Below, piece by piece: positions 5,735 to 62,824 of a stretch of DNA of 64,000 nt. The notes beneath the pieces were generated by a model, which was not told where the DNA came from, did not search any database, and was given only the letters and a program-made list of their open reading frames with translations. Each line of letters begins with the position of its first letter. Positions within the stretch are counted from its first letter, which is position 1. Made by a program: the position numbers and the translations under genes. The stretch covers positions 43,259 through 107,258 of the forward strand of contig DASZOV010000004.1 of assembly GCA_035550595.1 (NCBI GenBank), written 5' to 3'. The DNA is from Vicinamibacterales bacterium. Lineage in GTDB: Bacteria > Acidobacteriota > Vicinamibacteria > Vicinamibacterales > SCN-69-37.

Positions 5735-5811
5735 GTTTCAAAACTGCGAACTTCGAACTGCGAACTTCGAACGAATGGGGCGCCTTCGGCGCGTCTCTTC
5801 AGTTTTGAAAC
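5735..5811. repeat. Intergenic hairpin element: 12-bp perfect outer stem enclosing CGAACTT repeats and a GCGCC-TTC-GGCGC mini-hairpin
   Basis: GTTTCAAAACTG (5735-5746) is the exact reverse complement of CAGTTTTGAAAC (5800-5811). The interior is CGAACTTCGAACTGCGAACTTCGAACGAATGGGGCGCCTTCGGCGCG. It sits between convergent genes and probably acts as a bidirectional terminator. Confidence 0.7.
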
Positions 5812-5846
5812 ACGCTCGTGGAACCCCCGCCACTGCGTAGCGTCGT

Positions 5847-7100
5847 TTACGAGATCGGGACGAGCCGCAGCACGAACCCCTCGGTCGTATCCGACAGCTT
5901 CTGGCCGGGAAGCGCGGTCGCGACGTAGAACAATCCGTCCGGTCCCATGATGATGTCGCGCACGCGGCCGAGGTTGTCGAAGACGACTTCCTGGTGCGTG
6001 ACGTGATCGTGATCGATCACGATCCGCCGCAGCACCTGTCCGCCGAGCGCCGTGACGAAGAGCTGATTCTTCCACTTCGGATAGCGATCGCCCGTGTCGA
6101 AGGCGATGCCCGCCGGCGCGATGCTCGGCGTCCAGAACACGATGGGCGAGTCCATGCCGGCGCGCGACGTGTCGGTCACGCCCGGCTGCCGGCCGTTCGA
6201 CACGACGGCCCAGCCGTAGTTGTGGCCCGGCTTGATGATGTTCAGCTCGTCGCCGCCGTTCGGCCCGTGCTCGGTCTCCCACAGCTCGCCGGTCACCGGA
6301 TCGAAGGCGAGGCCCTGCGGATTGCGATGGCCGTACGACCAGATCGACGGCACCGCGCCCGGACGATTCACGAACGGGTTGTCCTTGGGGATCGATCCGT
6401 CGTCGTTCACGCGGTGGATCTTGCCCGTGGGCTTCGAGAGATCCTGCGCGTTCTCGGGCGCGCCGTGTTCGCCGAGGCTGAAGAACAGGTGATCCTGTTT
6501 GTCGAAGACGAACCGCGATCCGTAGTGGATGTGCGTCGTCGTGTAGAACTCCGGCGCCGCGTGGAAGATGGACTGCTGATCGACCCAGTGGTTGGTCGCA
6601 TCGATCTTGCCGCGGATGATGGCCGTCATGCCGGTGTTGTTGTCCGCACGCTCGGTGAGCGACGTGTTGTTCGGTCCGGGTTCCGCGTAGGAGAGATAGA
6701 TCCAGCCGTTCTCGGCGTACTTCGGATGGACCTCGACGTCCATCAATCCGCCGTCCTGCACCTGCTCGACCTTGGGCAATCCGACGACCGGATCCGACAG
6801 CTTTCCGTGATCGACGATGCGCAGACGGCCGGGGCGCTCGGTGACGAGCAGGCGGCCGTCAGGCAGGAAGGCGAGTCCCCACGGCGTCTCGAGGCCGCGC
6901 GCGACGACTTCGACACGCAGCGTCTGCACTTCCGACTGGACGATGTGGCCGTCCGGGTTGGTGACCGTCGCCGGTTTCGGTGGACGCATGGCGCGGCCGC
7001 CGGGCGGCGCGGGCGTTTGTGCGGGCGGTGCGCTTTGTGCGCCCAACCACGCGGTTCCCGCCAGTGCCATTGCCACGATCCACGGCCCCGTCTTCGTCAT
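5847..7100 (-). CDS. Soluble PQQ-dependent sugar (glucose/sorbosone-type) dehydrogenase, secreted
   Basis: ORF 5847..7778 trimmed to MTKTGPWIVAMALAGTAWLGAQS (signal peptide, ATG 7100). Beta-propeller motifs include GLETPWGLAFLPDGRLLVTERPGRL and SYGHRNPQGLAFDPVTGELW. Confidence 0.85.
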   Translation of the reverse strand: MTKTGPWIVAMALAGTAWLGAQSAPPAQTPAPPGGRAMRPPKPATVTNPDGHIVQSEVQTLRVEVVARGLETPWGLAFLPDGRLLVTERPGRLRIVDHGKLSDPVVGLPKVEQVQDGGLMDVEVHPKYAENGWIYLSYAEPGPNNTSLTERADNNTGMTAIIRGKIDATNHWVDQQSIFHAAPEFYTTTHIHYGSRFVFDKQDHLFFSLGEHGAPENAQDLSKPTGKIHRVNDDGSIPKDNPFVNRPGAVPSIWSYGHRNPQGLAFDPVTGELWETEHGPNGGDELNIIKPGHNYGWAVVSNGRQPGVTDTSRAGMDSPIVFWTPSIAPAGIAFDTGDRYPKWKNQLFVTALGGQVLRRIVIDHDHVTHQEVVFDNLGRVRDIIMGPDGLFYVATALPGQKLSDTTEGFVLRLVPIS

Positions 7101-17341: not shown

Positions 17342-18847
17342 ATGCGCGTCCATCTCATCAATCCGAGCGACCTGTCCTTCGGCCTCGCGGTCATCACGCC
17401 GCGCTGGCTGTTCGTGCTCGCGGCCGCCACGCCCGAGCACTTCGGCGAGCCCGTGCTCGTCGATGAAACGCTGGAGCGGCTCGACGTCGAGACCATTGCG
17501 CCAGGCGACATCGTCGGCATCGGCATCCACACCGGCAATGCGCTACGCGGCTACGAGGTCGGACGCCTCGTGCGGGAGCGCGGGGCAACGGTCATCTACG
17601 GCGGCATCCACGCGACGCTGTTTCCCGACGAAGTGCTCGAGCGCGGGTCGGCGCACGCCGTCGTGAGCGGCGACGGCGACCTCGTATGGCCGGAGGCGTT
17701 GGCCGATTGCGAGGCCGGCACGTTGAAGACGCGCTACGACGGCGGCCGTGTCGAGGGCACGCGGTTCCGCCCGGCGCGCTGGGATCTCCTGCCGAAGGGC
17801 CGCTACATGTGGGCGTCTGTGCAGACCGTCCGCGGCTGCCCGAAGCACTGCTCGTTCTGCTCGGTGTGGCGCACTGACGGCCAGGCCCCCCGCAACCGCA
17901 CCGCGTCGTCGGTCATCGGCGAAATCGTGGAGCTGCGGCGGCGCGGGTTCCGCTTCATCGCACTCGCCGACGACAACTTCTATCCGGTCTCGCTGCAGGA
18001 CCTGGCCCAGGCCGCGCGGCACAAGGACCAGACGCGGCTGCACGAATTGGAGGCGCTGCGCGCCGATCGCTTCGCGCTGATGGCCGATCTGGCCAAGCTG
18101 CCGAAGGACACGGTGTTCTTCACGCAGATCACGATGGAGGCGGCCGAGGATCCCGAGTTCCTCGACGCGATGCAGCGCGCGCACATCAAGGGCGTGCTCG
18201 TCGGCGTCGAGTCGGTGACGCCAGAGGGGCTGAAGACGGTCTACAAGAACTTCAATCTCTCGGGCGACGCGCTGGCCGCGCGCCTGCGGCTGTTCCGTGA
18301 GCACGGCGTACACGTGCTCGGATCGTTCATCTTCGGCTTGCCGACCGACCGGCCCGACACGTTCGATGCAACGGCCGCGGTCGCCGAGCAGGCGGGCATC
18401 ACGTTCGCGCAGTTCGTGATGCTGACGCCGTTTCCCGGCACGATCGACTTCGAGAAATGGGAGCGCAGCTTCGAGGGCGATCCGCCGGCGGTCGACGGCG
18501 TGCCGATCACGCGCCACTGGCTGATTCCCGCCGCGAAGCGGCCGAAGTTCTACATGCCGCACCCGGCCATGACGCCCGACGAGATTCGCGCGAACACGCA
18601 GCGCGTGTGGGACCGCTTCTACGCGCTGCCGCAGATCTGGACGCGGAGCCGCTGCGTCCCCAGCTTGAAGGGCCGCCTCGGCTTTCTCCTCATCTCCAAG
18701 CTCTATCGCCAGATGTACGCCAACACGGGCATTTCGACCGACAGCGCCAGGCGATCGACGTCGATCCGCTGGGCGCGCATCATCAGCCGTCCGTGCCAGC
18801 GTCTGTTCGCCGGCCGCCCTATGCCGGACTTGCAGGTGCCGTCGTAA
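17342..18847 (+). CDS. B12-binding-domain radical SAM protein (class-B-like)
   Basis: ORF 17036..18847 trimmed to MRVHLINPSDLSFG (ATG 17342). N-terminal Rossmann-like B12 domain (GDIVGIGIHTGNALRGYEVGRLVRERGATVIYGGIH), then VRGCPKHCSFCSV = CX3CX2C. Confidence 0.85.
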   Translation: MRVHLINPSDLSFGLAVITPRWLFVLAAATPEHFGEPVLVDETLERLDVETIAPGDIVGIGIHTGNALRGYEVGRLVRERGATVIYGGIHATLFPDEVLERGSAHAVVSGDGDLVWPEALADCEAGTLKTRYDGGRVEGTRFRPARWDLLPKGRYMWASVQTVRGCPKHCSFCSVWRTDGQAPRNRTASSVIGEIVELRRRGFRFIALADDNFYPVSLQDLAQAARHKDQTRLHELEALRADRFALMADLAKLPKDTVFFTQITMEAAEDPEFLDAMQRAHIKGVLVGVESVTPEGLKTVYKNFNLSGDALAARLRLFREHGVHVLGSFIFGLPTDRPDTFDATAAVAEQAGITFAQFVMLTPFPGTIDFEKWERSFEGDPPAVDGVPITRHWLIPAAKRPKFYMPHPAMTPDEIRANTQRVWDRFYALPQIWTRSRCVPSLKGRLGFLLISKLYRQMYANTGISTDSARRSTSIRWARIISRPCQRLFAGRPMPDLQVPS

Positions 18848-18865
18848 GGCGAGTGAAGTGCTTCG

Positions 18866-18972
18866 GTCAACTTCGAACTTTGAACTGTGAACTTCGAAAT
18901 GTGGTTCTGCGCTTGGGCGTGGCTCGATCAAGAACCAATTTCGAAGTTCGAAGTTTGAAGTTCGAAGTTGAC
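18866..18972. repeat. 107-nt long hairpin element with TTCGAA-heptad arms
   Basis: Left arm GTCAACTTCGAACTTTGAACTGTGAACTTCGAAAT (18866-18900) pairs with right arm ATTTCGAAGTTCGAAGTTTGAAGTTCGAAGTTGAC (18938-18972); most mismatches are G-U compatible. Inner stem TGGTTCT/AGAACCA. Confidence 0.85.
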
Positions 18973-19028
18973 GACAGCGCCGCGTACGCATTTGGTCACG
19001 ACGCTCGAACCCACTATGATCCCGCGCC

Positions 19029-20780
19029 ATGCGCGCACATCTGCGGATTGCCTGCGCGGCGGCGGCGTTGGCGCTGGCGGCGCCGGCTCAGGCCGCGCCG
19101 CACTGGACGTACGGCACGAGCGAGCACTTCGAGGTCTACACCACCGCCGGCGAGAAGGGCGCGCGCGATGCGCTTGAGTCCTTCGAGCGGATCCGCGGAT
19201 TTTTCATCGACTATCTGAAACTCTCGCCCGCGCGACAGAACCCGACGCGGCTGGTCGTGTTCTCGGGTGATTCGGAATTCAAGCCATATCGGCTGAACGA
19301 AGCCTCGATCGCCTACTACGGACCGGGCCCGGATCGCGACGTCATCGTGATGCGCTCGCTGCACGAAGACGACGAGCCCGTCGCCGTCCACGAGTACGCG
19401 CACCTCGTCCTGCAACAGGCGGCCAATCGCTTTCCCGTCTGGTTCAACGAGGGGATCGCCGAGTTCTTCTCGACGATGGCGCCGTTCGGCGGCGCGATGA
19501 GCATCGGCCGCGTGCCGCGCGATCGACTGCTGTACCTCACGTCCGGCGTGAAGCTCATCGATCTGCCGCGCCTCTTGACCGTCGAGCGGGATTCGCCCGA
19601 ATACAACACGAAATCGCATGCCGGCGTCTTCTATTCGGAGAGCTGGGCGCTCGTGCACATGCTCATGACCGATGCGCGCTATCGCGCGGCCACCGGTCAG
19701 CTCATCGCCCTCATGTCGACCGGTACCGCGACGGCGGCGGACATCGAGCGCCTCTACGGCAAATCCCTCGCCGCGATCGCACAGGATCTCGTCGCCTACA
19801 TCCATGGTGGCCGGTACACCTATTTCTCATCTCCGTATCGCGAACCGGCGTCGGCGCAGTTCAGCGTGCGGCCCGCGACGGACTTCGAGAGCGGCCTGGC
19901 GACGGCCAATCTGCTCGCCGGTCTGAAGCAGGACGAGGCGGCCGCGCGCGCGGCCTTTGCCCGACTCGCGGCCGATCACCCGGACGACGTCTCGCTCGTC
20001 GAGTCGGAGGCCGTGTTCGAGCTGCAACACGGTCATCGGAATGCGGCCCAGCCGCTACTTCGACGCGCGATCGCGCTCGGCAGCAAGACGCCGCGCATCT
20101 ACGCGCAGTATGCGGCGATGATCGGTTCGAACGACGTCGCCGCGGCCGAACCAATCCTGAAGACGGCGACCGATCTCGCGCCCGACGATCTCGACCTGAA
20201 GCTGACGTACGCGTCCGTGCTGGTGGCCGTGCACAAGCCCGCGGACGCGATCGCCGTGCTGAAGTCGTTTCCGCGTGTCGCTGCCGATCGCGCCTACGCG
20301 TACTTCAACATCGCGGCGAATGCCCAGCTCATGCTCGACGATCTCGACGACGCGAAAGCCTCCGCGGCGCGGGCGGTGAGCTACGCGCGGCCGGGCGCCG
20401 AGGCGAGTGGCGCGAAACAGATGGCCGACATCATCGATCAGCGGCTGGCCGACCGCGCGTACGCGAAGCGCATGGCCGAGGCTGCGAGCCGTGCCGTCGC
20501 CGCTGACGAGCCTGCGCGGCTCGCGCTTTCCGGCCGGATGACGAACATGGTCTGCGGCAAGAACGCGCCCGTCGTCGAAGTGACGACGGCCGACAAGCAG
20601 GTCGTGCGGCTCGTCATCGACGATCCATTGCAGGTCATCGTCGGCGCGACGGGCGGCACGCAGATCGATCTGCAGTGCGGGCCGCAAGACCATCCCGTGC
20701 GCGTCGTCTACGAGATCGCCGAGGATGCGGCCGCGCACACGGCAGGCAAGCTGCGCGGCATCACGTTCGAGACGCCGTAG
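19029..20780 (+). CDS. Secreted MA-clan (HExxH) metallopeptidase-like protein with TPR-like repeats (DUF1570-like)
   Basis: Signal peptide MRAHLRIACAAAALALAAPAQA. HEYAHLVLQQ...WFNEGIAEFF gives HExxH plus a downstream Glu. A central Ala/Leu-rich helical repeat region is followed by a C-terminal beta domain with 2 Cys. Confidence 0.65.
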   Translation: MRAHLRIACAAAALALAAPAQAAPHWTYGTSEHFEVYTTAGEKGARDALESFERIRGFFIDYLKLSPARQNPTRLVVFSGDSEFKPYRLNEASIAYYGPGPDRDVIVMRSLHEDDEPVAVHEYAHLVLQQAANRFPVWFNEGIAEFFSTMAPFGGAMSIGRVPRDRLLYLTSGVKLIDLPRLLTVERDSPEYNTKSHAGVFYSESWALVHMLMTDARYRAATGQLIALMSTGTATAADIERLYGKSLAAIAQDLVAYIHGGRYTYFSSPYREPASAQFSVRPATDFESGLATANLLAGLKQDEAAARAAFARLAADHPDDVSLVESEAVFELQHGHRNAAQPLLRRAIALGSKTPRIYAQYAAMIGSNDVAAAEPILKTATDLAPDDLDLKLTYASVLVAVHKPADAIAVLKSFPRVAADRAYAYFNIAANAQLMLDDLDDAKASAARAVSYARPGAEASGAKQMADIIDQRLADRAYAKRMAEAASRAVAADEPARLALSGRMTNMVCGKNAPVVEVTTADKQVVRLVIDDPLQVIVGATGGTQIDLQCGPQDHPVRVVYEIAEDAAAHTAGKLRGITFETP

Positions 20781-20849
20781 CGGCCCGGCGATTCACCGAA
20801 GCGCCGCGAAGACGCGTGCGGCGGCCCGGGCTCGACGAGTCGCCGCGCG

Positions 20850-24089: not shown

Positions 24090-24253
24090 GTCATCTTTTT
24101 TGCAGTGCGTTGGGGCCCCACCCCCAACGCTACGCGCTTCGCCGCCCTCGCTACGCTCGCGAGTCATCTTCTTTGCAATGGCGCGGGGCCCCACCCCCGC
24201 GCTACGCGCTTCGCCACCCTCGCTACGCTCGGGGGCTCGCGGTGTCATCTTTC
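24090..24253 (-). repeat. REP-like element, tandem copies B1 (24090-24162, internal ~9-nt deletion) and B2 (24163-24253)
   Basis: The reverse complement of B2 reads GATGACACCGCGAGCCCCCGAGCGTAGCGAGGGTGGCGAAGCGCGTAGCGCGGGGGTGGGGCCCCGCGCCATTGCAAAGAAGATGAC. B1 has the GCGTTGGGG/CCCCAACGC stem variant. Confidence 0.85.
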
Positions 24254-24276: not shown

Positions 24277-24305
24277 CCTTCGCGATCTTCGCGCCTTCGC
24301 GTGAG
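24277..24305 (-). repeat. CGCGAAG-octamer repeat block (28-mer core)
   Basis: The reverse complement is TCACGCGAAGGCGCGAAGATCGCGAAGG, identical to 51688-51715 and 27/28 identical to 52718-52745. Confidence 0.85.
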
Positions 24306-27290: not shown

Positions 27291-27300
27291 GAGCGCTGCG

Positions 27301-27362
27301 CAACTTCGAACTTCGAACCGAGAACTTCGAACGGAGGAGGCGCCTTCGGCGCATCGTTCTCG
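27301..27362. repeat. CGAACTT-repeat plus GCGCC-TTC-GGCGC mini-hairpin element (same core as 5747-5795)
   Basis: CAACTTCGAACTTCGAACCGAGAACTTCGAACGGAGGAGGCGCCTTCGGCGCATCGTTCTCG. CGAGAAC (27319-25) pairs with GTTCTCG (27356-62). Confidence 0.75.
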
Positions 27363-27393
27363 TGTTGAACGGTGCTCGAAGCCAGAGGTGCGA

Positions 27394-40095: not shown

Positions 40096-40133
40096 GGGCG
40101 AAGCCTCGCGCGAAGTCGCGAAGACGCGAAGGG
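40096..40133 (+). repeat. CGCGAAG-octamer array
   Basis: GGGCGAAGCCTCGCGCGAAGTCGCGAAGACGCGAAGGG. Confidence 0.8.
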
Positions 40134-43351: not shown

Positions 43352-43430
43352 CTATCTCGCAAATGCCCTTGCGCGGATCCGGCGTCAACAGGTGGGCACT
43401 CCGCGACGCCATCTACGCGTCGTCACGTGG

Positions 43431-43532
43431 CAACTTCGAACTTCGAACTGAGGTTCCGGGCGTCGCCATCCGGCCGCCACGTCCGCACCGGGAACCAATT
43501 TCGAACTTCGAAGTTCATAGTTCGAAGTTGAC
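43431..43532. repeat. TTCGAA-arm hairpin element (second full member)
   Basis: CAACTTCGAACTTCGAACTGAGGTTCCGGG...CCGGGAACCAATTTCGAACTTCGAAGTTCATAGTTCGAAGTTG. Same arm/inner-stem architecture as 18866-18972. Confidence 0.8.
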
Positions 43533-43561
43533 GAGAGCCTTTCACTCTAGAATGGCCCCCG

Positions 43562-45866: not shown

Positions 45867-45882
45867 CGCGGACAAGAACGAG

Positions 45883-46110
45883 TCAACTTCGAACTTCGAA
45901 CTATGAACTTCGAACTTGTTCCGGGTTCGGCCTCGCGCGAAGACGCGAAGGCTCGAATGATGGTGGAAGGACTTACATGCTGGTGGGGAGAACCTGGAAC
46001 CTGAGCACCGGGAACCGGGGAACCTTTCGAACCTGGAACCGCAGAACCCGGAACCCAGCCCAGAACCAGGAACCAGAACCAGGAACGCTGAACCCTGGAA
46101 CCCGGAACCC
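45883..46110. repeat. Composite intergenic mosaic: TTCGAA-heptad arm + CGCGAAG block + ~17 x GAACC array
   Basis: 45883-45925 is GTCAACTTCGAACTTCGAACTATGAACTTCGAACTTGTTCCGGG. 45929-45951 is GGCCTCGCGCGAAGACGCGAAGG, identical to 53651-53673. 45988-46110 is GAACC every 6-9 nt. Confidence 0.85.
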
Positions 46111-51608: not shown

Positions 51609-51609
51609 A

Positions 51610-51770
51610 CGCGCGAAGCCGCGGACGCGAAGGACGGACGACGCTTCGCGCGAAGGCTCGGACGGGCCTCACGCGAAGGGGGGACATTTCACGCGAAGGC
51701 GCGAAGATCGCGAAGGGATCCGACTAGTTCTTTCTTTTCACGTTCGCGGCTTCGCGCGTGAGGCTTACGC
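51610..51770. repeat. CGCGAAG-octamer composite (7 forward and 2 inverted copies), imperfect long palindrome
   Basis: Contains GCGCGAAGCC, GACGCGAAGG, the palindrome CTTCGCGCGAAG, CCTCACGCGAAGG, and the 28-mer TCACGCGAAGGCGCGAAGATCGCGAAGG (51688-51715), then the inverted GGCTTCGCGCGTGAGG. Confidence 0.85.
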
Positions 51771-52631: not shown

Positions 52632-52679
52632 CGTGTCCTCTCAATCAACAGCGTACGGTGACTTGCCATACCGGTCAAC

Positions 52680-52825
52680 CTCACGCGAAGACGCGAACAA
52701 TGCGAAGGACAGGCACCTCACGCGAAGGCGCGAAGATCGAGAAGGAGAGCGGATCGTAGGCCGCGCCTTCGCGGCTTCGCGTGAGGCCTCGTGAGCGGGC
52801 ATTTTGTCGTCTTCGCGCGAGGCTC
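52680..52825. repeat. CGCGAAG-octamer composite, same organisation and orientation as 51610-51770
   Basis: CCTCACGCGAAGACGCGAACAATGCGAAGG...TCACGCGAAGGCGCGAAGATCGAGAAGG (52718-52745)...GCCTTCGCGGCTTCGCGTGAGGCC...CGTCTTCGCGCGAGGC. Confidence 0.85.
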
Positions 52826-53604: not shown

Positions 53605-53683
53605 CGCGAGGCCCGAGTGGAGCGAGGGTGCCGAAGCGTCGTAGGCGTGGGGCCTCGCGCGAAGACGCGAAGGTCGCGAAGAC
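53605..53683 (+). repeat. Degenerate REP-like copy E fused to a CGCGAAG block
   Basis: GCGCGAGGCCCGAGTGGAGCGAGGGTGCCGAAGCGTCGTAGGCGTGGGGCC, then CTCGCGCGAAGACGCGAAGGTCGCGAAGAC. Confidence 0.7.
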
Positions 53684-53804: not shown

Positions 53805-56800
53805 TTAGAACGAGAGGCGGAAGGTCAACTGGACCGTCCGCATGTCCTGCGCGCTGTTGACCGCGCCAAACCCGGCATTCTTCGGCTGGGTCTTGTTCGG
53901 ATCGACGCTGCCGTCAGCCAGGAACTGGGAGTTGCGAATGCCTTGGTCGACCGGGTTCGTCAACTGGAGCTGCGTCTGCCGGCCGGTGTAGACGAGGATG
54001 TTGAACGCGTTGAACGCGTCCACGCGGAACGAGGCCTGCCGGCCGCCGCCGAGGCGGAAGTTCCGGACGAGCGCCAGGTCGATCCTTTTGTTCGGGCAGC
54101 CCTGGAGGATGTTACGGCCCGACTCTAGGCCGTTGCTGCTGTAGGTCGGTCCCGCGACAACACTGGCGTTGAACTGCGCGTACTGGTTGTCCGAGCAGCC
54201 ACTGCCAGGATCGCCGTTGTAAACGATCCGGGCGGCGTAGTCGGGCGAACCCGTCAGATTCACGTTCTGGCCGTTGTTCTGGTACGTATAGCTCAGATCG
54301 TAATGTCCAGCCGAGCCAGCTAACAACACGCCCGACAACTGCCAGTCGTTGAGGATGGCCGCGACGACGCGCTTGCCGCCGCTGTCCGCGCTGACGTCGG
54401 GCAGGTCCCACACCGCGTTGGCTGTGAGCGTGTGTCGGCGCAGGTCGAGGTTCTTCATCAGGTCGAACCACTGCGCGTTGTCGGCACGCAGGGACACCGT
54501 GCCGTCGGGCGAGTGCTGGAGCCGCTCGACGTCCATGTTGTTGATGTTCGGTAAGCCGGTATTGCCGGTGAAGGACAGCCCGAGCGTGTAGTTGAGGCCG
54601 AACGAGAGCCCGTTCACGAACCGGCGGTTGAGCGACGCCTGGATCGAGTGGTACGACTGGTAGAACGCGCTCGTGTTCTGCCCGATGTTGTTCAGGCCCC
54701 GGTAGGTCCGGAGCATGACGTCGGGGAGCGCCGTGGCGCCCGGCACCGAGCTCGGGGCTTTGGTCGGATCTTGATTCTCGGGCAGGTAGGCCGCGCCGAG
54801 ATCGACGGAGTTCAGGTTCAGGCGACCGTTGCCCTGGAAGTCGCCCATCATGTTGTAGCCGTGGCTACCAACGTAGGACAGGTCGAGCGAGGAGCTCCAC
54901 GGCAACACCATCTGCACACCTGCGTTCCACTGCACCGATGACGGAATGTCCGAATCGTACTGGAACGTGATCATGTCGGGCGTGCCAATCGTGCTCACGC
55001 TGCTCGCCAGGTTCTGCAGGTTGCCATTGCGTAGATCCTGGCCGTCGGCGAACGGCGGGTTGCTCGGGATCGAGAACACCGTGTTGCCGTCCGGCCGGTC
55101 GTAGAACAGACCGAGGCCGCCACGCACGACGAAGCGCTGGTCGCCGCTGAGGTCATAGGCGGCGCCGAAGCGCGGACCGAAGACCATCGACGGCCAGGTG
55201 TAGCCCGTCTTCGCGATGCCGTCGCCGGCCGCGCGAATGCCGTTCAGCCGGTCGCCCGAGTCAGGCACGACTGTGCCGATGAAGGCCGAGCTGTTGGCCG
55301 CGTTCGGGATGACGAGGAGCTCCCCGGTGAGCGGGTTCATTGCGTTGCGATCGCCTGCGGCGCAGGGACTGACGCCGCCCGCGCACGCTGGGACGTAGAG
55401 CACCGGCGCCGCTCCGGCCGACCACTGATCGGGGAAGAAGCCGGACATCTGGCCGAACTGGTCGTACTGCGGCTCCTGGTGCGTGAAGCGCATGCCGTAG
55501 TCGAGGGTCAACCGCGGGCTCACCTTCCAGTTGTCCTGGAGGTAGAACTCCTCGTTGTTGTAGATCATGTTGCCCTCGATGAGCTGCGACGCCTGCTGGT
55601 AGCGCGTGAACACGCCCACGGCCGCGTTGGCGAACCCAAAGCCCGTATCGAGCGGGTTGTTGCTGTCGTTGCCGAAGTCGACGTTGCCCTGGAACGAGCC
55701 CGCGCCGCCGGCGCCGGTGTTCTGGGCCTTGAAGCTGTGGTTGTTGTAGAAGCCAGCCTTCATCGTGTGATGGCCCGCGACCTTGGTCACGCTCATCACG
55801 AGGTCCTGCGTCTTGTTCACGTTCAGCCAGCCCGGGTACTGCTGGTTGATGTTCTGATTGTTGGAGATGAGACCGCCCCAGTTGAACAGCGGCGGCAGGT
55901 TGACGCTGGTGCCGTCGAAGTAGATGGCGCCGGTGCGCGTGAGCGCGTCGAGCTGGTAGTAGCGCGGATCGACCTTGCCCGCATTCGGGTAGAGCAGCGG
56001 GAAGTCGGCCAGGCCGTTCAGCCGGTTGGCGCTGTCGTTGATCAGAATGCCGTTGTTGTTGCCGCCGGCCAGCTCGTTCTTGATCGTGCCATAGGTGGCC
56101 TCGATGAACGTCGTCGGGTTCAGCGTGTAGTCGACCGTGAAGCTATAGTTCGTGATGTACGGATACGGTACGAGCACATCGTTGTAACCCGGCAACGTGC
56201 CCACCACGACGCGCTGCTGATCACGATTCGCCGAGTAATGGCCGGTGACGCGGAGGGCCGGCGAGAACTGGTAGTCCACGCGCACGGCCGGCTGCTGGAC
56301 GAGGTGCTTGTCTTCGGCTCGCTGCAACTCCGTGTTGTAGCTCGAGCCCGGCGCCTGCGTCAGGTTCGGCAATGGATACCGGTTCAGGACGTTCAGGCCC
56401 ACCTGGTACAGGTCGGACTGCGGGATGACGTTGTTCGGGTACGGCTCCCGCGTGTACGGGCTCAGCAGTTGCGGGATCGGATCGCCGTTGTTGTCGAGCG
56501 ACTGCGAGAAGTCGCCCTGCCGCTCGGCCGCGCTCGGCAGCCGAAAGTGGAGGGTCGAACCCGCCGTCGCCTGCGGATGATATTCGTGGCTGTAGAAGAA
56601 GAACAGCTTGTTGTTGCCACCCGGCTTGCCGATCGGGCCGCCGATCGAGTAGCCCCAGTGCCGATCCTTGAACTCCGGCTTTGGGTTACCGTTCTCTTTG
56701 TCCTGCCACTTGATTGTGTCCCACGAGTCGTTGCGCTCGATGTCGTAGAGGGAGCCGTGGAAGCGGTTCGTGCCGCTTTTGCTCACGGCCGTGATCTGCA

Positions 56801-57503
56801 CGCCGCTCGACCGCCCGTATTCGGCCTGGTAGCCCTGCGTGAGCACCTTGACCTCGGCGATCGACTCGATGTTGAGGTTCAGCATCTGGCCGTTGTTGCC
56901 GGTGTCCATGGCCGAGATGCCGTCCATCTGGAGATTGTTCTGGCCGCTCGCGCCCAATCGCGTGGCCTGTTGGCCGCTCTGCATTTGCGTCTGAATATTC
57001 ATGCCGGGCGCCATGAGTGCGAGGTTCGCAAAGTTGTCGTGACCGACCGGCAGGTTCGTGACCTGCGTGGTCGAGACCGTGAAGGAGCGCTCGCCGCTCT
57101 GGGCCTGAATCATCGGCGCTTCGGCGGTGACGTCGACGGTTTCCGTCGTGCCGCCGACTTCGAGGGTCAGTGTGCCGACGACGACACGGTCGCCGCCGCT
57201 CACGGCGACGTCCTTACGCTGCGTGGTCTTGAAGCCGCTCATCGACACGTCAACGGTGTACGTGTCGGCGGTGACGTTCGCAATGACCCAGTCACCGGTC
57301 TCGTTGGTGACGACCGGGATCGACTTCGTCCCGCGTGACTGACTGGTGAGCACCACGGTGGCGCCTGGAATGACGCCGCCCTGCGTGTCTTTGACCGTTC
57401 CGGCCACCGTGCCGGTCGTGATCTGCGCCGAAGCGTTCGACACGGCGACGCACCCGAGGATCAGTGCTGCCGCCAGTGCCCAGACCTTCCCTTTCCACTG
57501 CAT
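53805..57503 (-). CDS. TonB-dependent receptor with N-terminal carboxypeptidase-regulatory-like domain (copy 1)
   Basis: ORF 53805..57560 trimmed to [27 protein letters not shown] (GGAGG RBS). [25 protein letters not shown] is the CarboxypepD_reg domain. A plug region and a long beta-barrel follow, ending FRLSF. Confidence 0.9.
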   Translation of the reverse strand: MQWKGKVWALAAALILGCVAVSNASAQITTGTVAGTVKDTQGGVIPGATVVLTSQSRGTKSIPVVTNETGDWVIANVTADTYTVDVSMSGFKTTQRKDVAVSGGDRVVVGTLTLEVGGTTETVDVTAEAPMIQAQSGERSFTVSTTQVTNLPVGHDNFANLALMAPGMNIQTQMQSGQQATRLGASGQNNLQMDGISAMDTGNNGQMLNLNIESIAEVKVLTQGYQAEYGRSSGVQITAVSKSGTNRFHGSLYDIERNDSWDTIKWQDKENGNPKPEFKDRHWGYSIGGPIGKPGGNNKLFFFYSHEYHPQATAGSTLHFRLPSAAERQGDFSQSLDNNGDPIPQLLSPYTREPYPNNVIPQSDLYQVGLNVLNRYPLPNLTQAPGSSYNTELQRAEDKHLVQQPAVRVDYQFSPALRVTGHYSANRDQQRVVVGTLPGYNDVLVPYPYITNYSFTVDYTLNPTTFIEATYGTIKNELAGGNNNGILINDSANRLNGLADFPLLYPNAGKVDPRYYQLDALTRTGAIYFDGTSVNLPPLFNWGGLISNNQNINQQYPGWLNVNKTQDLVMSVTKVAGHHTMKAGFYNNHSFKAQNTGAGGAGSFQGNVDFGNDSNNPLDTGFGFANAAVGVFTRYQQASQLIEGNMIYNNEEFYLQDNWKVSPRLTLDYGMRFTHQEPQYDQFGQMSGFFPDQWSAGAAPVLYVPACAGGVSPCAAGDRNAMNPLTGELLVIPNAANSSAFIGTVVPDSGDRLNGIRAAGDGIAKTGYTWPSMVFGPRFGAAYDLSGDQRFVVRGGLGLFYDRPDGNTVFSIPSNPPFADGQDLRNGNLQNLASSVSTIGTPDMITFQYDSDIPSSVQWNAGVQMVLPWSSSLDLSYVGSHGYNMMGDFQGNGRLNLNSVDLGAAYLPENQDPTKAPSSVPGATALPDVMLRTYRGLNNIGQNTSAFYQSYHSIQASLNRRFVNGLSFGLNYTLGLSFTGNTGLPNINNMDVERLQHSPDGTVSLRADNAQWFDLMKNLDLRRHTLTANAVWDLPDVSADSGGKRVVAAILNDWQLSGVLLAGSAGHYDLSYTYQNNGQNVNLTGSPDYAARIVYNGDPGSGCSDNQYAQFNASVVAGPTYSSNGLESGRNILQGCPNKRIDLALVRNFRLGGGRQASFRVDAFNAFNILVYTGRQTQLQLTNPVDQGIRNSQFLADGSVDPNKTQPKNAGFGAVNSAQDMRTVQLTFRLSF

Positions 57504-57837
57504 GTTCTGGCCTCCATCCCCTGACACACGACGAACAGGACCCCGTCGGAACCCGGCCACGCCCGGCCGGACGCCTGTCGTTCGGTGATCTGACAGGCGC
57601 TCCAGTCGTTCGCGGTTGCGACGGCCGCAGCCGCCGCCCCGGACACGACGCCATCCTGCCTAGCTATCCCGGACACAGTAGCGGGCGGTCGAAGGCGTGC
57701 CCATCCGGCGCCAACCGTATTTCTCAGGACTGAAGAGGCTCGTATTGCTCGCGCCGGAATGGGTGGGGGGACCGCTCGCGGGCCCGATTTCCGGCCGGAC
57801 CCTCCCGTCTTGTCCTGACGGGAGCGCAAAAAAAGAG

Positions 57838-57886: not shown

Positions 57887-60800
57887 TTAGAACGAGAGGC
57901 GGAAGGTCAACTGGACCGTCCGCATGTCCTGCGCGCTCGTCGCGCCACCGAACCCGGCGCTCTTCGGCTGGGCCTTGGTCGGATCGACGCTGCCGTCGGC
58001 CAGGAACTGCGAGTTGCGGACGCCCTGGTCCGTCGGGTTGGTCAACTGGAGCTGCGCCTGCCGGTTGTTGTAGACGAGCACGTTGAACGCGTTGAACGCG
58101 TCCACGCGGACCTGCGCCTGCCGGCCGCCGCCGAGGCGGAAGTTCCGGACGAGCGCCAGGTCGACCGTCTTGTTCGGGCAGCCCTGGAGGATGTTGCGAC
58201 CCGACTCCATGCCGTCGCTGTGGTAGGTCGGACCCGCCACGACGCCGGCGTTGAACTGCGCGTACTGGTTGCTCGAGCAGCCGCTGCCAGGATCGCCGTT
58301 GTAAAGGAGCCGGGCGGCGTAGTCGGGCGACCCCGTCAGATTCACGTTCGAACCGTTGTTCTGGTACGTGTAGCTCAGGTCGTAATGTCCACCCGAGCCA
58401 GCCGACAACACGCCCGACAACTGCCAGTCGTTGAGGATGGCCGCGACGACGCGCTTGCCGCCGCTGTCGGCGCTCATGTCCGGCAGGTCCCACACGGCAT
58501 TCGCGATGAGCGTGTGCCGCCGCAGGTCGAGGTCCTTCATCAGGTCGAACCACTGCGCGTTGTCGGCGCGCAGCGAGACCGTGCCGTCCGGCGAGTGCTG
58601 AAGCCGCTCGACGTCCATGTTGCTGATGTTCGGGAGGCCGGTATTGCCCGTGAAGGAGAGCCCGAGCGTGTAGTTGAGCCCGAACTGGAGTCCGTTCACG
58701 AACCGGCGGTTGAGCGAGGCCTGGATCGAGTGATACGTCTGGTAGAACCCGCTCGTGTTCTGCCCGATGTTGTTCAGGCCCTGGTAGGTCCGGAGCATGA
58801 CGTCGGGGAGCGCCGTGGCGCCCGGCACCGAGCTCGGGGCCTTGGTCGGATCCTGGTTCTCGGGCAGGTACGCCGCGCCGAGATCGACGGAGTTCAGGTT
58901 CAGGCGCCCGTTGCCCTGGAAGTCGCCCATCATGTTGTAGCCGTGGCTACCGACATAGGACAGGTCGAGCGACGAGCTCCACGGCAACACCATCTGCACA
59001 CCCGCGTTCCACTGTACCGACGACGGGATGTCCGCGTCGTACTGGAACGTGATCAGGTCAGGCGTGCCAATCGTGCTCACACTGCCCGACAGGTTCTGCA
59101 GGTTGCCGTTGCGGAGGTCCTGCGAGTCGGCGAACGGCGGGTTGCTCGGGATCGAGAACACCGTGTTGCCGTCCGGCCGGTCGTAGAACAGACCGAGGCC
59201 GCCACGCACGACGAAGCGCTGGTCGCCGCTGAGGTCATAGGCGGCGCCGAAGCGCGGGCCGAAGACCATCGATGGCCACGTGTACCCCGTCTTCGCGATG
59301 CCGTCGCCGGCCGCGCGAATGCCGTCCAACCGGTCACCCGAGTTCGGGACGACCGTGCCGATGAACGCCGAGCTGTTCGTCGCGTTCGGGATGACGAGGA
59401 GCTCACCGGTGAGCGGGTTCATCGCGTTGCGCTGGTTGGCCGAGCAGGGATTCACGCCGCTCGCGCAGGCCGGCACGTAGAGCACCGGGGCCGTCGCCGC
59501 ATTCCATTGATCCGGGAAGAAGCCGGACATCTGGCCGAACTGGTCGTACTGCGGCTCCTGGTGCGTGAAGCGCATGCCGTAGTCGAGGGTCAACCGCGAA
59601 GTCATCTTCCAGTTGTCCTGGAGGTAGAACTCCGTGTTGTTGTAAATCATGTTGCCCTCGATGAGCTGCGACGACTGCTGGTAGCGGTCGAACACGCCCA
59701 CGGCTGCGTTGGCGAACCCGAAGCCCGTATCGATCGGGTTGTTGCTGTCGTTGTTGAAGCTGACGGTGCCCTGGAACGAGCCCGCGCCGCCGGCGCCGGT
59801 GTTCTGGGCCTTGAAGCTGTGGTTGTTGTAGAAGCCGGCCTTCATCGTGTGGTGACCCGCAACCTTGGTCACGCTCACCGCGAAGTCCTGCGTCTTGTTC
59901 ACGTTCAGCCAGCCCGGATACTGCAGGTTCAGCGTGCCGGGATTGGAAATCAGACCGCCCCAGTTGAAGAGCGGCGGCAGGTTGACGCTGGTACCGTCGA
60001 AGTAGATGGCGCCGGTGCGCGTGAGCGCGTCGAGCTGGTAGTAGCGCGGATCGACCTTGCCCGCGTTCGGATAGAGCAGCGGGAAGTCGGCCAGGCCGTT
60101 CAACCGGTTGGCGCTGTCGTTGACGAGGATGCCACCCGAGCCGCCGCCGGCCAGCTCGTTCTTGATCGAGCCGTAGACGGCCTCGATGAACGTCGTCGGC
60201 GTCAACGTGTAGTCCACCGTGAAGCCATAGTTCGTGATGTACGGATAGGGGATCAACACGTCGTTGTAGCCCGGCAGCGTGCCGACCTGGACGCGCTGCT
60301 GGTCACGCTGGGCGGAGTACTTGCCCGTGATGCGAAGGGCGGGCGAGAGCTGGTAGTCCACGCGGATGGCCGGCTGCTGCACGAGGTGCTTGTCCTCGGC
60401 GCGTTCGAGCTCCGTGTTGTAGCTCGTGCCGGGTGCCTGCGTGATGTTCGGCAGCGGGTACCGGTTCAGGACGTTCAGGCCCACCTGGTACAGGTCGGCC
60501 TGCGGGATGACGTTGTTCGGGTACGGTTCCCGCGTGGTCGGGCTGAGCAGTTGAGGAATCGGCGCGCCGTTGTTGTCGAGCGACTGCGAGAAGTCGCCCT
60601 GCCGCTCGAGCGCGGTCGGCAGGCGGAAACGGTTGATCGACCCAGCCGTCTTCTGCGGATGATATTCGTGGCTGTAGAAGAAGAACAGCTTGTTGTTCCC
60701 ACCCGGCTTGCCGATCGGGCCGCCAATGGAGTAACCCCAGCGCCGGTCCTTCAGCTCAGGCTTCTGGTTGCCATTGGCTTTGTCCTGCCACTTGATGGTG

Positions 60801-61564
60801 TCCCAATCGGAGTTGCGCTCGACGTCGTAGAGGGAGCCGTGGAAGCGGTTCGTGCCGCTCTTGGTCACGGCCGTGATCTGCGTGCCGCTCGACCGGCCGT
60901 ACTCGGCCTGGTAGCCCTGCGTGAGCACCTTGACCTCGGCGATCGACTCGATGTTCAACTGCAGCATCTGGCCGTTGTTGCCCGTGTCCATGGCCGAGAT
61001 GCCGTCCATCTGGAGATTGTTCTGGCCGCTCGAACCGAGCCGGTTCTGTGAACCCATGGCCATGCCGGGGGCCATGCGCGCGAGATCCGCGAAGTTGTTG
61101 CGGTTGATCGGCAGGTTCGCCACCTGCGTCGTGTCAACCGTGAAGGAGCGTTCACCGCTCTGGGCCTGAATCATCGGCGCTTCGGCGGTGACATCGACGG
61201 TTTCCGTCGTGCCGCCGACTTCCAGGGTCAGCGTGCCGACGACAACACGGTCGCCGCCGCTCACCGCCACGTCCTTGCGCGCCGTGGTCTTGAAGCCGCT
61301 CATCGACACTTCGACGGTGTACGTGTCGGCCGTGACGTTCGCGATGACCCAGTCACCGGTTTCGTTGGTGACGACCGGGATCGACTTCGTCCCGCGTGAC
61401 TGACTGGTGAGCACCACGGTGGCGCCTGGAATGACGCCGCCCTGCGTGTCTTTGACCGTCCCGGCCACCGTGCCGGTCGTGATCTGCGCCGAAGCGCTCG
61501 GCACCGCGAAGCACCCGAGGATCAGTGCTGTCGCTACTGCCCAAACCTTGCCTTTCCACTGCAT
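57887..61564 (-). CDS. TonB-dependent receptor with carboxypeptidase-regulatory-like domain (copy 2, tandem paralogue)
   Basis: ORF 57887..61606 trimmed to [27 protein letters not shown]. About 90% identical to copy 1 over the stretches compared by eye, with a 7-aa deletion near residue 190. Confidence 0.9.
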
Positions 61565-61950
61565 GTTTCTGGCCTCCATCCCCTGACACACGACGAACAG
61601 GACCACGTCAGGACCCGGCCGCGGGCACCAGACGCCTGTCGTTTTCGGTGCTCGACACGCGATCTGCCGCCCGCGGTCGCGGTGGCCGCAGCCACCGCCC
61701 CGGACACGACGTCATCCTGGCTAGCTATCCCGGGCACAGTAACGGGCAGGGGGAGATGTAGCCATACCTGAGAGTCAGTATTGTCATGTCAGAAAAGGAT
61801 GTATTTTCAGGTCTTCACAGGCCCCCTGTCGGCCAGGCCACGGCCCATGGCGCCTGCCATTTTTCGTCAAATTTCGAGCATTTTCGAGAAAACAAGCATG
61901 GACGGGACAGGAAACGGGCGCTGGGGAGGCGGCAGGGGACAGGGCCAAAG

Positions 61951-62774: not shown

Positions 62775-62782
62775 ACGAGAAA

Positions 62783-62822
62783 GTTAGAAGTTCGAAGCCA
62801 GAAGCCAGAAGCCAGAAGTTCG
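62783..62822. repeat. GCCAGAA x3 flanked by AGTTCGAA palindromes in the kinase-regulator spacer
   Basis: AGAAGTTCGAAGCCAGAAGCCAGAAGCCAGAAGTTCGAACT fills the 50-nt gap between the HK stop (62825) and the RR start (62774). Confidence 0.8.
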
Positions 62823-62824
62823 AA

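Follow-up and report, generated by a model that had tools for sequence, protein, structure and literature searches.

The 107-nt hairpin that separates a radical SAM gene from a metallopeptidase gene, here called E2, is a dispersed repeat and not a bespoke regulator. In the reading preferred here, to which a probability of about 0.5 is given, it pairs two inverted copies of a lineage-specific, dispersed module, originated by slippage and now acts as a putative 3'-end hairpin or insulator. The features on which this reading draws are collected in Table 1, where "the window" stands for the whole stretch of DNA that was analysed (64 kb, 67 % GC) and E1 to E6 denote the repeat elements in their order along it.

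Table 1. Repeat elements, flanking genes and promoter in the 64-kb window.
Feature	Position	Strand	Description	Basis
E1	5742-5817	+	single module 13 nt past the stop of a LytTR response regulator (5729), then GGCGCCTTCGGCGC mini-hairpin; between convergent genes	
Upstream gene	17342-18847	+	B12-binding radical SAM enzyme, 501 aa, stop codon 18845-18847	Pfam Radical_SAM and weak B12-binding match
E2 (hairpin)	18866-18972 (107 nt)		arms 18866-18900 and 18938-18972	inverted-repeat search
E2 left arm	18866-18900	+	forward heptad module GTCAAC-TTCGAAC-TTTGAAC-TGTGAAC-TTCGAAAT	inverted-repeat search, TRF, module alignment, nhmmer (E = 1.7e-11)
E2 inner stem and loop	18902-18937	+	TGGTTCT/AGAACCA, 7 bp, and 22-nt GC-rich loop	sequence, fold, E2/E4 alignment
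E2 right arm	18938-18972	-	reverse module (…GTTCGAAGTTGAC)	inverted-repeat search, TRF, module alignment, nhmmer (E = 9.5e-11)
Sigma-70-like promoter of the peptidase gene	18993-19020	+	TGGTCA-16-TATGAT or TTGGTC-17-TATGAT	promoter scan
Downstream gene	19029-20780	+	secreted DUF1570/TPR protein with signal peptide and HEYAH zincin motif	
E3	27299-27370	+	single module ~10 nt past the stop of a PQQ-dehydrogenase (27290), then GGCGCCTTCGGCGC mini-hairpin	
E4	43428-43533	+	degenerate inverted pair with E2 architecture; divergent region between padR (-) and antiporter gene (+)	
E5	45881-45918	+	single module 15 nt past the stop of DUF4159 (45866), then CGCGAAG octamers and GGAACC-rich stretch	
E6	62781-62824	-	mixed heptad array (CTTCGAA/CTTCTGG) filling the 41-nt gap between two - strand genes	
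Octamer CGCGAAGR sites	24287-24301, 40109-40131, 45936-45958, 51609-51760, 52679-52786, 53658-53672			

The first-pass annotation had described a near-perfect hairpin with 35-nt arms, and the inverted-repeat search recovered it as such, with arms of 35 nt that are 89 % complementary and lie 37 nt apart. Direct base-by-base pairing of the arms gave 31 Watson-Crick pairs, three G·U pairs and one G·A, in full agreement with the four non-Watson-Crick positions, three of them G-U compatible, that had been counted earlier. The positions compatible on the + strand were T18881·G18957, G18882·T18956 and T18888·G18950, the single true mismatch being G18887·A18951. The sequence also bore out an inner stem of 7 bp (TGGTTCT at 18902-18908 and AGAACCA at 18931-18937) closing a GC-rich loop of 22 nt (68 % GC), and TRF reproduced the 7-nt period of the arms as two arrays of 4.3 copies each, at 18869-18898 and 18940-18969. 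The variable heptads displayed no co-variation between the two arms.

Folding of both strands, proposed earlier as a check, gave strong structures on each. The RNA fold of the + strand reached -71.7 kcal/mol (z -12.8), with 0 of 200 shuffles as good, and that of the - strand -57.5 kcal/mol (z -8.3), again matched by no shuffle; the DNA fold of the + strand (-43, z -10.5) was likewise unmatched. At the gathering threshold the window was without any Rfam match, and a permissive Rfam search retrieved only generic miRNA-precursor hairpins below threshold (e.g. 41.7 bits against a threshold of 105). E2 is bordered by ...TTCG/GTCAAC on the left and by GTTGAC/GACAG on the right, and no direct repeat that could represent a target-site duplication was found to flank it, nor to flank E4 or the hairpins of loci L116 and L140 introduced below. 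Long spurious ORFs cross E2 on both strands (18457-19218 on +, 17543-19030 on -) and both fail the GC3 gene-calling test; annotators are likely to meet such spurious ORFs across heptad arrays, where assemblers are likely to have trouble as well.

The flanking radical SAM and metallopeptidase genes were confirmed as described and have no functional relation to each other. The radical SAM protein is 100 % identical to a 501-aa protein of a Vicinamibacterales (Acidobacteriota) MAG and its C-terminus aligns with those of its orthologues; exact look-ups of the protein itself returned no entry. E2 starts 19 nt past the stop codon of this gene and ends 20 nt before the promoter-like site, and the ATG of the peptidase gene follows the -10 hexamer TATGAT after 8 nt. 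A TTGGTn-N17-TATGAT arrangement and its spacing to the ATG were kept in all alleles of three lineages (the window, L140 and L131-L139) while the remaining spacer turned over. This conservation of hexamers and spacing supports the site as a promoter and makes it probable that the peptidase mRNA is leaderless. Attenuation of the downstream gene, one of the roles first suggested for the hairpin, is unlikely because the conserved promoter intervenes between E2 and the ATG. A promoter provided by the TTGAC terminus of E2 or E4 itself was also considered and rejected, as its spacing to any -10 hexamer was wrong at both elements. On the far side of the peptidase gene, a 60-aa RNA polymerase omega-like gene (PF01192) precedes the GH95 gene in the L132-type lineage (L132-L139; in L132 at 6791-6973) and on the P0125 contig. 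Neither the window (20781-20849) nor L140 has this gene, and their peptidase-GH95 gap measures only 31-69 nt.

E2 is larger than a normal terminator, as had been stated, and no canonical terminator was found at its location. The scan of 18700-19150 returned no terminator-like site, no U-tract is present and the tail after E2 reads GACGACAGCGCC; identity with a canonical intrinsic terminator (GC-rich stem of 5-20 bp, loop of 3-8 nt, U-tract) was rejected on these features. Over the first 60 kb of the window such terminators showed no enrichment (34 against ~28 expected), which makes other 3' structures plausible, and stem-loops are known to mark transcript 3' ends in intrinsic and Rho-dependent termination alike (PMC13613805). 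With the U-tract-less ('I-shaped') terminators and 3'-protective hairpins of GC-rich bacteria E2 shares a stable stem-loop just past a stop codon, the lack of a U-tract and a genome not enriched in canonical terminators, whereas its stem, which is AT-rich and derives from repeats, is much longer (35 bp + 7 bp), and termination by it is only putative. The minimum free energy of the 120 nt after every gene was discarded as a measure, being non-discriminating at 67 % GC and cutting off part of E2. The sole textbook intrinsic terminator in the window, with a 15-bp stem and a T-run, is located at 53784-53751; upstream of it lie two tandem paralogues of ~1280 aa (53805-57659 and 57887-61711, - strand) with unusually low first-position GC. 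A 72-nt tandem duplication (24090-24231, two copies, 88 % identical) was observed just upstream of a gene starting at ~24277.

The heptad string GAACTTCGAA, allowing at most one mismatch, occurred 33 times in the 64-kb window against 2.8 expected, and its matches clustered at the six intergenic sites E1 to E6. Alignment of the arms with the single arrays delimited a module of ~33 nt, (C)GTCAAC-TTCGAAC-TTCGAAC-TnnGAAC-TTCGAA, of which 11 aligned copies yielded the consensus GTCAACTTCGAACTTCGAACTnnGAACTTCGAA. An nhmmer profile recognised seven strong copies in the window (E 1.7e-11 to 6.1e-8), a density of about one module per 9 kb. These were singles in E1, E3 and E5 and inverted pairs in E2 and E4, which have both arms and the inner junction GAACCAATTTCGAA in common. 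The outer terminus GTCAAC was displayed by seven of the 11 modules; CGTC stood exactly at the terminus in five and as xGTC in two more, and the GTAG tag was absent from all. Five of the six window elements begin 0-19 nt past the stop of a co-oriented gene, the exception being E4. The module of E5 folds into 3+6+3 bp with C·C mismatches and a 7-nt loop, the 81-nt segment having a z of only -2.0. The search for further copies thus succeeded within the window as well as in other loci, and the earlier description of E2 as non-coding and REP-like is supported, its arms being copies of a dispersed ~33-nt extragenic module found single or as an inverted dimer.

Other short repeats accompany the heptads. 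The heptad modules of E1 and E3 are each followed by the same stem-loop, GGCGCCTTCGGCGC, closed by a UUCG loop (5779-5792 and 27339-27352); the copy in E1 was flagged as terminator-like by the scan (5777-5797), and a similar stem-loop follows the module pair of locus L034 (~190-215). This suggests a composite of module and mini-terminator at E1, E3 and L034. The octamer family CGCGAAGR (CACGCGAAGGCGCGAAG) had 14 matches in the window against 2.7 expected and formed inverted pairs in intergenic DNA (51692+/51742- and 52721+/52767-); as these occur alongside the heptads, the genome has at least two families of repeat-module hairpins. Directly after E5 and a CGCGAAG pair, a stretch of ~120 nt (45990-46110) is made of GGAACC-type repeats of 7-8 nt with a GAAC core, between the convergent DUF4159 and ychF genes.

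Syntenic loci were obtained through the peptidase orthologues and represent three lineages; between these, the radical SAM proteins share 94-96 % identity. As the first-pass annotation had advised, the site was compared for presence and absence of the hairpin, and it was polymorphic among these relatives. L140, with a peptidase 73 % identical and a spacer of 184 nt against 181 nt in the window, displayed a hairpin in the same place, with the same GTCAAC...GTTGAC termini and a similar spacing between hairpin and promoter -35. Its left arm has ~4.5 heptads, its right arm ~7, and its loop is unlike that of E2; these whole-heptad differences argue for a slippage-type change and not for transposition. 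Its + strand folds with -56.3 (z -3.5) and its - strand with -59.2 (z -4.6), so the - strand fold is the better one, the reverse of the + strand advantage that E2 has from its G·U pairs.

The sister lineage L131-L139, represented by at least 23 contigs from many samples, has a spacer of 98 nt that aligns to the right arm only, in the form of a degenerate array GTTCGAAGACAGAAGCCAGAAGTGG, and has no significant fold. The spacer is short by ~83 nt, which correspond to the left flank, the left arm and the loop. Since left arm and loop were lost in this lineage, the role of the hairpin is dispensable, and its absence from so many contigs makes any function non-essential. No clean empty site was encountered among the syntenic relatives, the short allele retaining its degenerate right-arm array. 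Loci with radical SAM orthologues of 80-86 % identity (L109-L113, L129, L130) were tried as an empty-site test and are uninformative, because synteny was lost in all of them. L131 has a radical SAM protein (100 %) and a spacer identical to those of L132, together with a peptidase 95 % identical to that of the window and 88 % to that of L132. By its sequence it looks recombinant, and such a mosaic would imply gene flow between lineages with and without the hairpin.

These comparisons argue against the MITE-like nature first suggested for E2. The elements resemble MITEs in their small size, lack of coding capacity, terminal inverted repeats and presence in several copies; unlike MITEs, they lack a target-site duplication and a clean empty site (the hairpin-less allele keeps one degenerate arm), single-arm copies are common, and the number of heptads per arm varies between orthologues, by whole heptads in L140.

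The 16-mer AACTTCGAACTTCGAA was found at more than 108 genome loci in a collection of 596 Gb, where ~280 matches are expected by chance (2 x 596 Gb / 4^16), and its taxonomic spread is therefore not quantitatively readable. Among the matches listed, 76 of 108 loci had at least three in-phase heptads, which is beyond chance; about one quarter belonged to Acidobacteriota, 79 were intergenic by a crude gene call, and array copy number fell off roughly monotonically in the manner of simple sequence repeats (SSRs). The forward heptad was sense to genes in 18 cases and antisense in 24, i.e. without bias, over these 108 listed loci of many phyla. A rule of sense orientation, suggested by the six window arrays, all of which read GAACTTC along a neighbouring gene (three cases being informative), was given up in view of these unbiased loci. 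The + strand G·U asymmetry of E2 was likewise rejected as a sign of RNA-level selection, as it depends on two to three transitions and is reversed in L140; together, the lack of orientation bias among the listed loci and this reversal weaken the case for RNA-level selection.

Hairpins of inverted arrays were found elsewhere in L116, L127, L086, L037, L073 and L140, and forward and reverse heptads stood in one and the same array in L034, L074, L100 and L101. A metagenome scan for paired termini produced 15 hits, only two of which (L116 and L127, soil metagenome) were true relatives of E2, with E2-like hairpins and unrelated loops. No paper mentioning the heptad string as such was retrieved by a literature search.

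Heptamer repeats are a recognised and still-unexplained class (PMC4679880) and are reported to be the over-represented long-SSR class of bacteria, an excess attributed to polymerase slippage (PMC4679880, PMC4692102). Considered as an analogy, the closest and best-documented precedent is the intergenic heptamer arrays of Xanthomonas. The GGGAATC arrays there are ~90 % intergenic, usually count four units and are separated from the upstream ORF by 28 nt on average; they form 70-75 convergent inverted pairs, favour neither strand and differ from one close species to the next (PMC4692102); intergenic heptameric SSR arrays are also known from Nostoc (Rehm et al. 2015, PMC4692102). The elements described here resemble them in their 7-nt period and ~four units, their closeness to the end of the upstream ORF (0-19 nt here), their intergenic location (~90 %), the lack of a strand preference, inverted pairs able to form stem-loops, and the variation of unit number and sequence at an orthologous locus (here in the window, L140 and L131-L139). 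They differ in belonging to the phylum Acidobacteriota, in having a defined GTCAAC terminus and in their unit, which is AT-rich with a palindromic TTCGAA core and for this reason forms no G-quadruplex.

The heptanucleotide repeats of Calothrix PCC 7601 and the TAACTGA repeats of Beggiatoaceae, Cyanobacteria and Bacteroidetes (MacGregor 2015, PMC4679880) are also overwhelmingly intergenic tandem heptamers and, like the elements here, occur in hundreds of sets per genome with a patchy distribution across lineages. The TAACTGA sets are mostly sense-oriented and end one to a few nt before a start codon, with a single case of the rare inverted pairs (PMC4679880), whereas the present elements follow stop codons and are often inverted pairs.

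In a rival explanation E2 would be a functionless by-product, direct and inverted arrays of the near-palindromic GAA-C-TTC, prone to slippage and fold-back, piling up just past stop codons, where selection is weakest. This explanation is rather unlikely; it is still a serious rival, because the role of the hairpin is dispensable and the G·U advantage is not conserved. It agrees with the general over-representation of heptamer SSRs in bacteria attributed to slippage (PMC4679880, PMC4692102), with the loss of the hairpin in relatives, with the unbiased orientation and monotonic copy-number distribution of the 108 loci among the matches listed, with the mixed orientations inside the four arrays named above and with the octamer family of the same window, which behaves likewise. 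It does not account well for the fact that two lineages carry the hairpin at one and the same site, its termini kept despite turnover of loop and heptad count, nor for modules of defined length and terminus, five of six of which start within ~20 nt of a stop and are not spread over the spacers.

Elements of the REP/BIME/REPIN type (Bertels & Rainey 2011, PMC3116915; Di Nocera et al. 2013, PMC3733652) are short extragenic imperfect palindromes downstream of ORFs, a build that the present modules may share. Like these, they are densely distributed as singles and as inverted dimers forming a hairpin of ~100 nt (35 + 37 + 35 nt in E2), with the same proposed roles in termination and mRNA stabilisation. 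E2 might accordingly be a REPIN-like non-autonomous mobile element, its inverted REP-type modules being mobilised in trans by a RAYT or another HUH single-strand transposase encoded elsewhere, which is judged unlikely. In its favour speak modules of ~33 nt that may each fold on themselves (E5), their extragenic occurrence past ORFs as singles and dimers, the recurrent outer terminus (GTCAAC in 7/11, CGTC in 5/11), whole-unit paralogues (E2/E4 and L116/L127) and the RAYT-related tyrosine transposases encoded by Acidobacteria (PMC3733652). The modules are set apart from REPs by the missing GTAG, a partial CGTC, their build of tandem heptads and a geometry other than that of CGTC-tagged REPs: the latter have a stem of 8-9 bp, a loop of 4-5 nt and a short CCA-like tail (PMC3733652), the former a mismatched stem of ~12 bp, a 7-nt loop and no CCA tail.

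The orthologous site, too, displayed changes in heptad number and the loss of one arm instead of clean presence and absence, and the copy number of the 108 listed loci decays like that of SSRs across phyla. No RayT-like gene was detected in the 64-kb window by tblastn (best E ~1), which is a weak negative. The only such gene found, with a HUH motif, belongs to a member of the Verrucomicrobiae (L029, 4990-5530) and has classical GTAG REPs on both sides (GTAGGGCAAGCATTCCTGCTTGCC), not heptads; the heptads of this locus, at a distance of 450 nt, are part of an apparent ORF of ~610 aa and encode EVRSSKLEVGS. A link between RAYT and heptads through this locus was rejected on account of the GTAG REPs that belong to the gene and of the coding location of the heptads. 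E2 is REPIN-like in layout and a candidate member of the REPs.

An element acting at the DNA level, in which the TTCGAA palindromes ~20-125 bp upstream of the peptidase -35 would form an array or cruciform and serve as a protein-binding platform regulating that promoter, is very improbable: the hairpin does end 20 nt upstream of the conserved -35, with similar spacing in L140, its DNA fold is far better than those of shuffles (z -10.5) and E4 also lies in a promoter region, but E1, E3 and E5 stand between convergent genes or ~290 nt from the next start with no adjoining downstream promoter, L131-L139 keep the promoter without the hairpin, and no candidate binding protein was identified.

The preferred reading, an inverted dimer with a putative role at the 3' end of the upstream transcript, combines slippage with position. 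The module would consist of ~4.5 tandem heptads GAA(C/G)TTC with a GTCAAC outer terminus, placed just past stop codons, and would change through heptad slippage and through deletion or duplication of arms, not through cut-and-paste transposition. Once transcribed, E2 would form the 3' end of the radical SAM mRNA, where it would fold into a long hairpin without U-tract. This hairpin may hold or protect that end, whether by blocking 3'-5' exonucleases or by acting as a factor-assisted terminator. The same structure may also shield the conserved and probably leaderless peptidase promoter 20 nt downstream from read-through. Judged from its position, E2 might plausibly insulate or terminate the upstream transcript, and its place between a stop codon and a conserved promoter makes a putative dispensable 3'-end hairpin or insulator the most likely function. 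E4, which sits in a divergent promoter region and not at a 3' end, speaks against such a role.

Heptad arrays that stay in phase around an invariant xAAC core (GAACTTC, CGAACAT, CGAACGC, GGAACCN) recur in many phyla, here as defined four-heptad modules directly behind stop codons. A more speculative proposal, and an improbable one, is that they share an uncharacterised reader of 7-nt periodic single-stranded nucleic acid, or that hairpin modules propagate independently of transposases. Such a reader could, for example, be a protein of OB, cold-shock or S1 fold that accommodates one heptad per domain. If true, either would constitute a genuine post-transcriptional or genome-maintenance system, beyond slippage debris.

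The present elements add Acidobacteriota, and a non-G-rich heptad with a palindromic core, to the still-unexplained class of intergenic heptamer repeats. The locus itself offers a natural series of three alleles at one site: the hairpin is well formed in the first, has arms of unequal length in the second and is reduced to one degenerate arm in the third, and each allele adjoins a conserved promoter. This series is a ready-made experiment on whether repeat hairpins terminate, stabilise or insulate transcripts.
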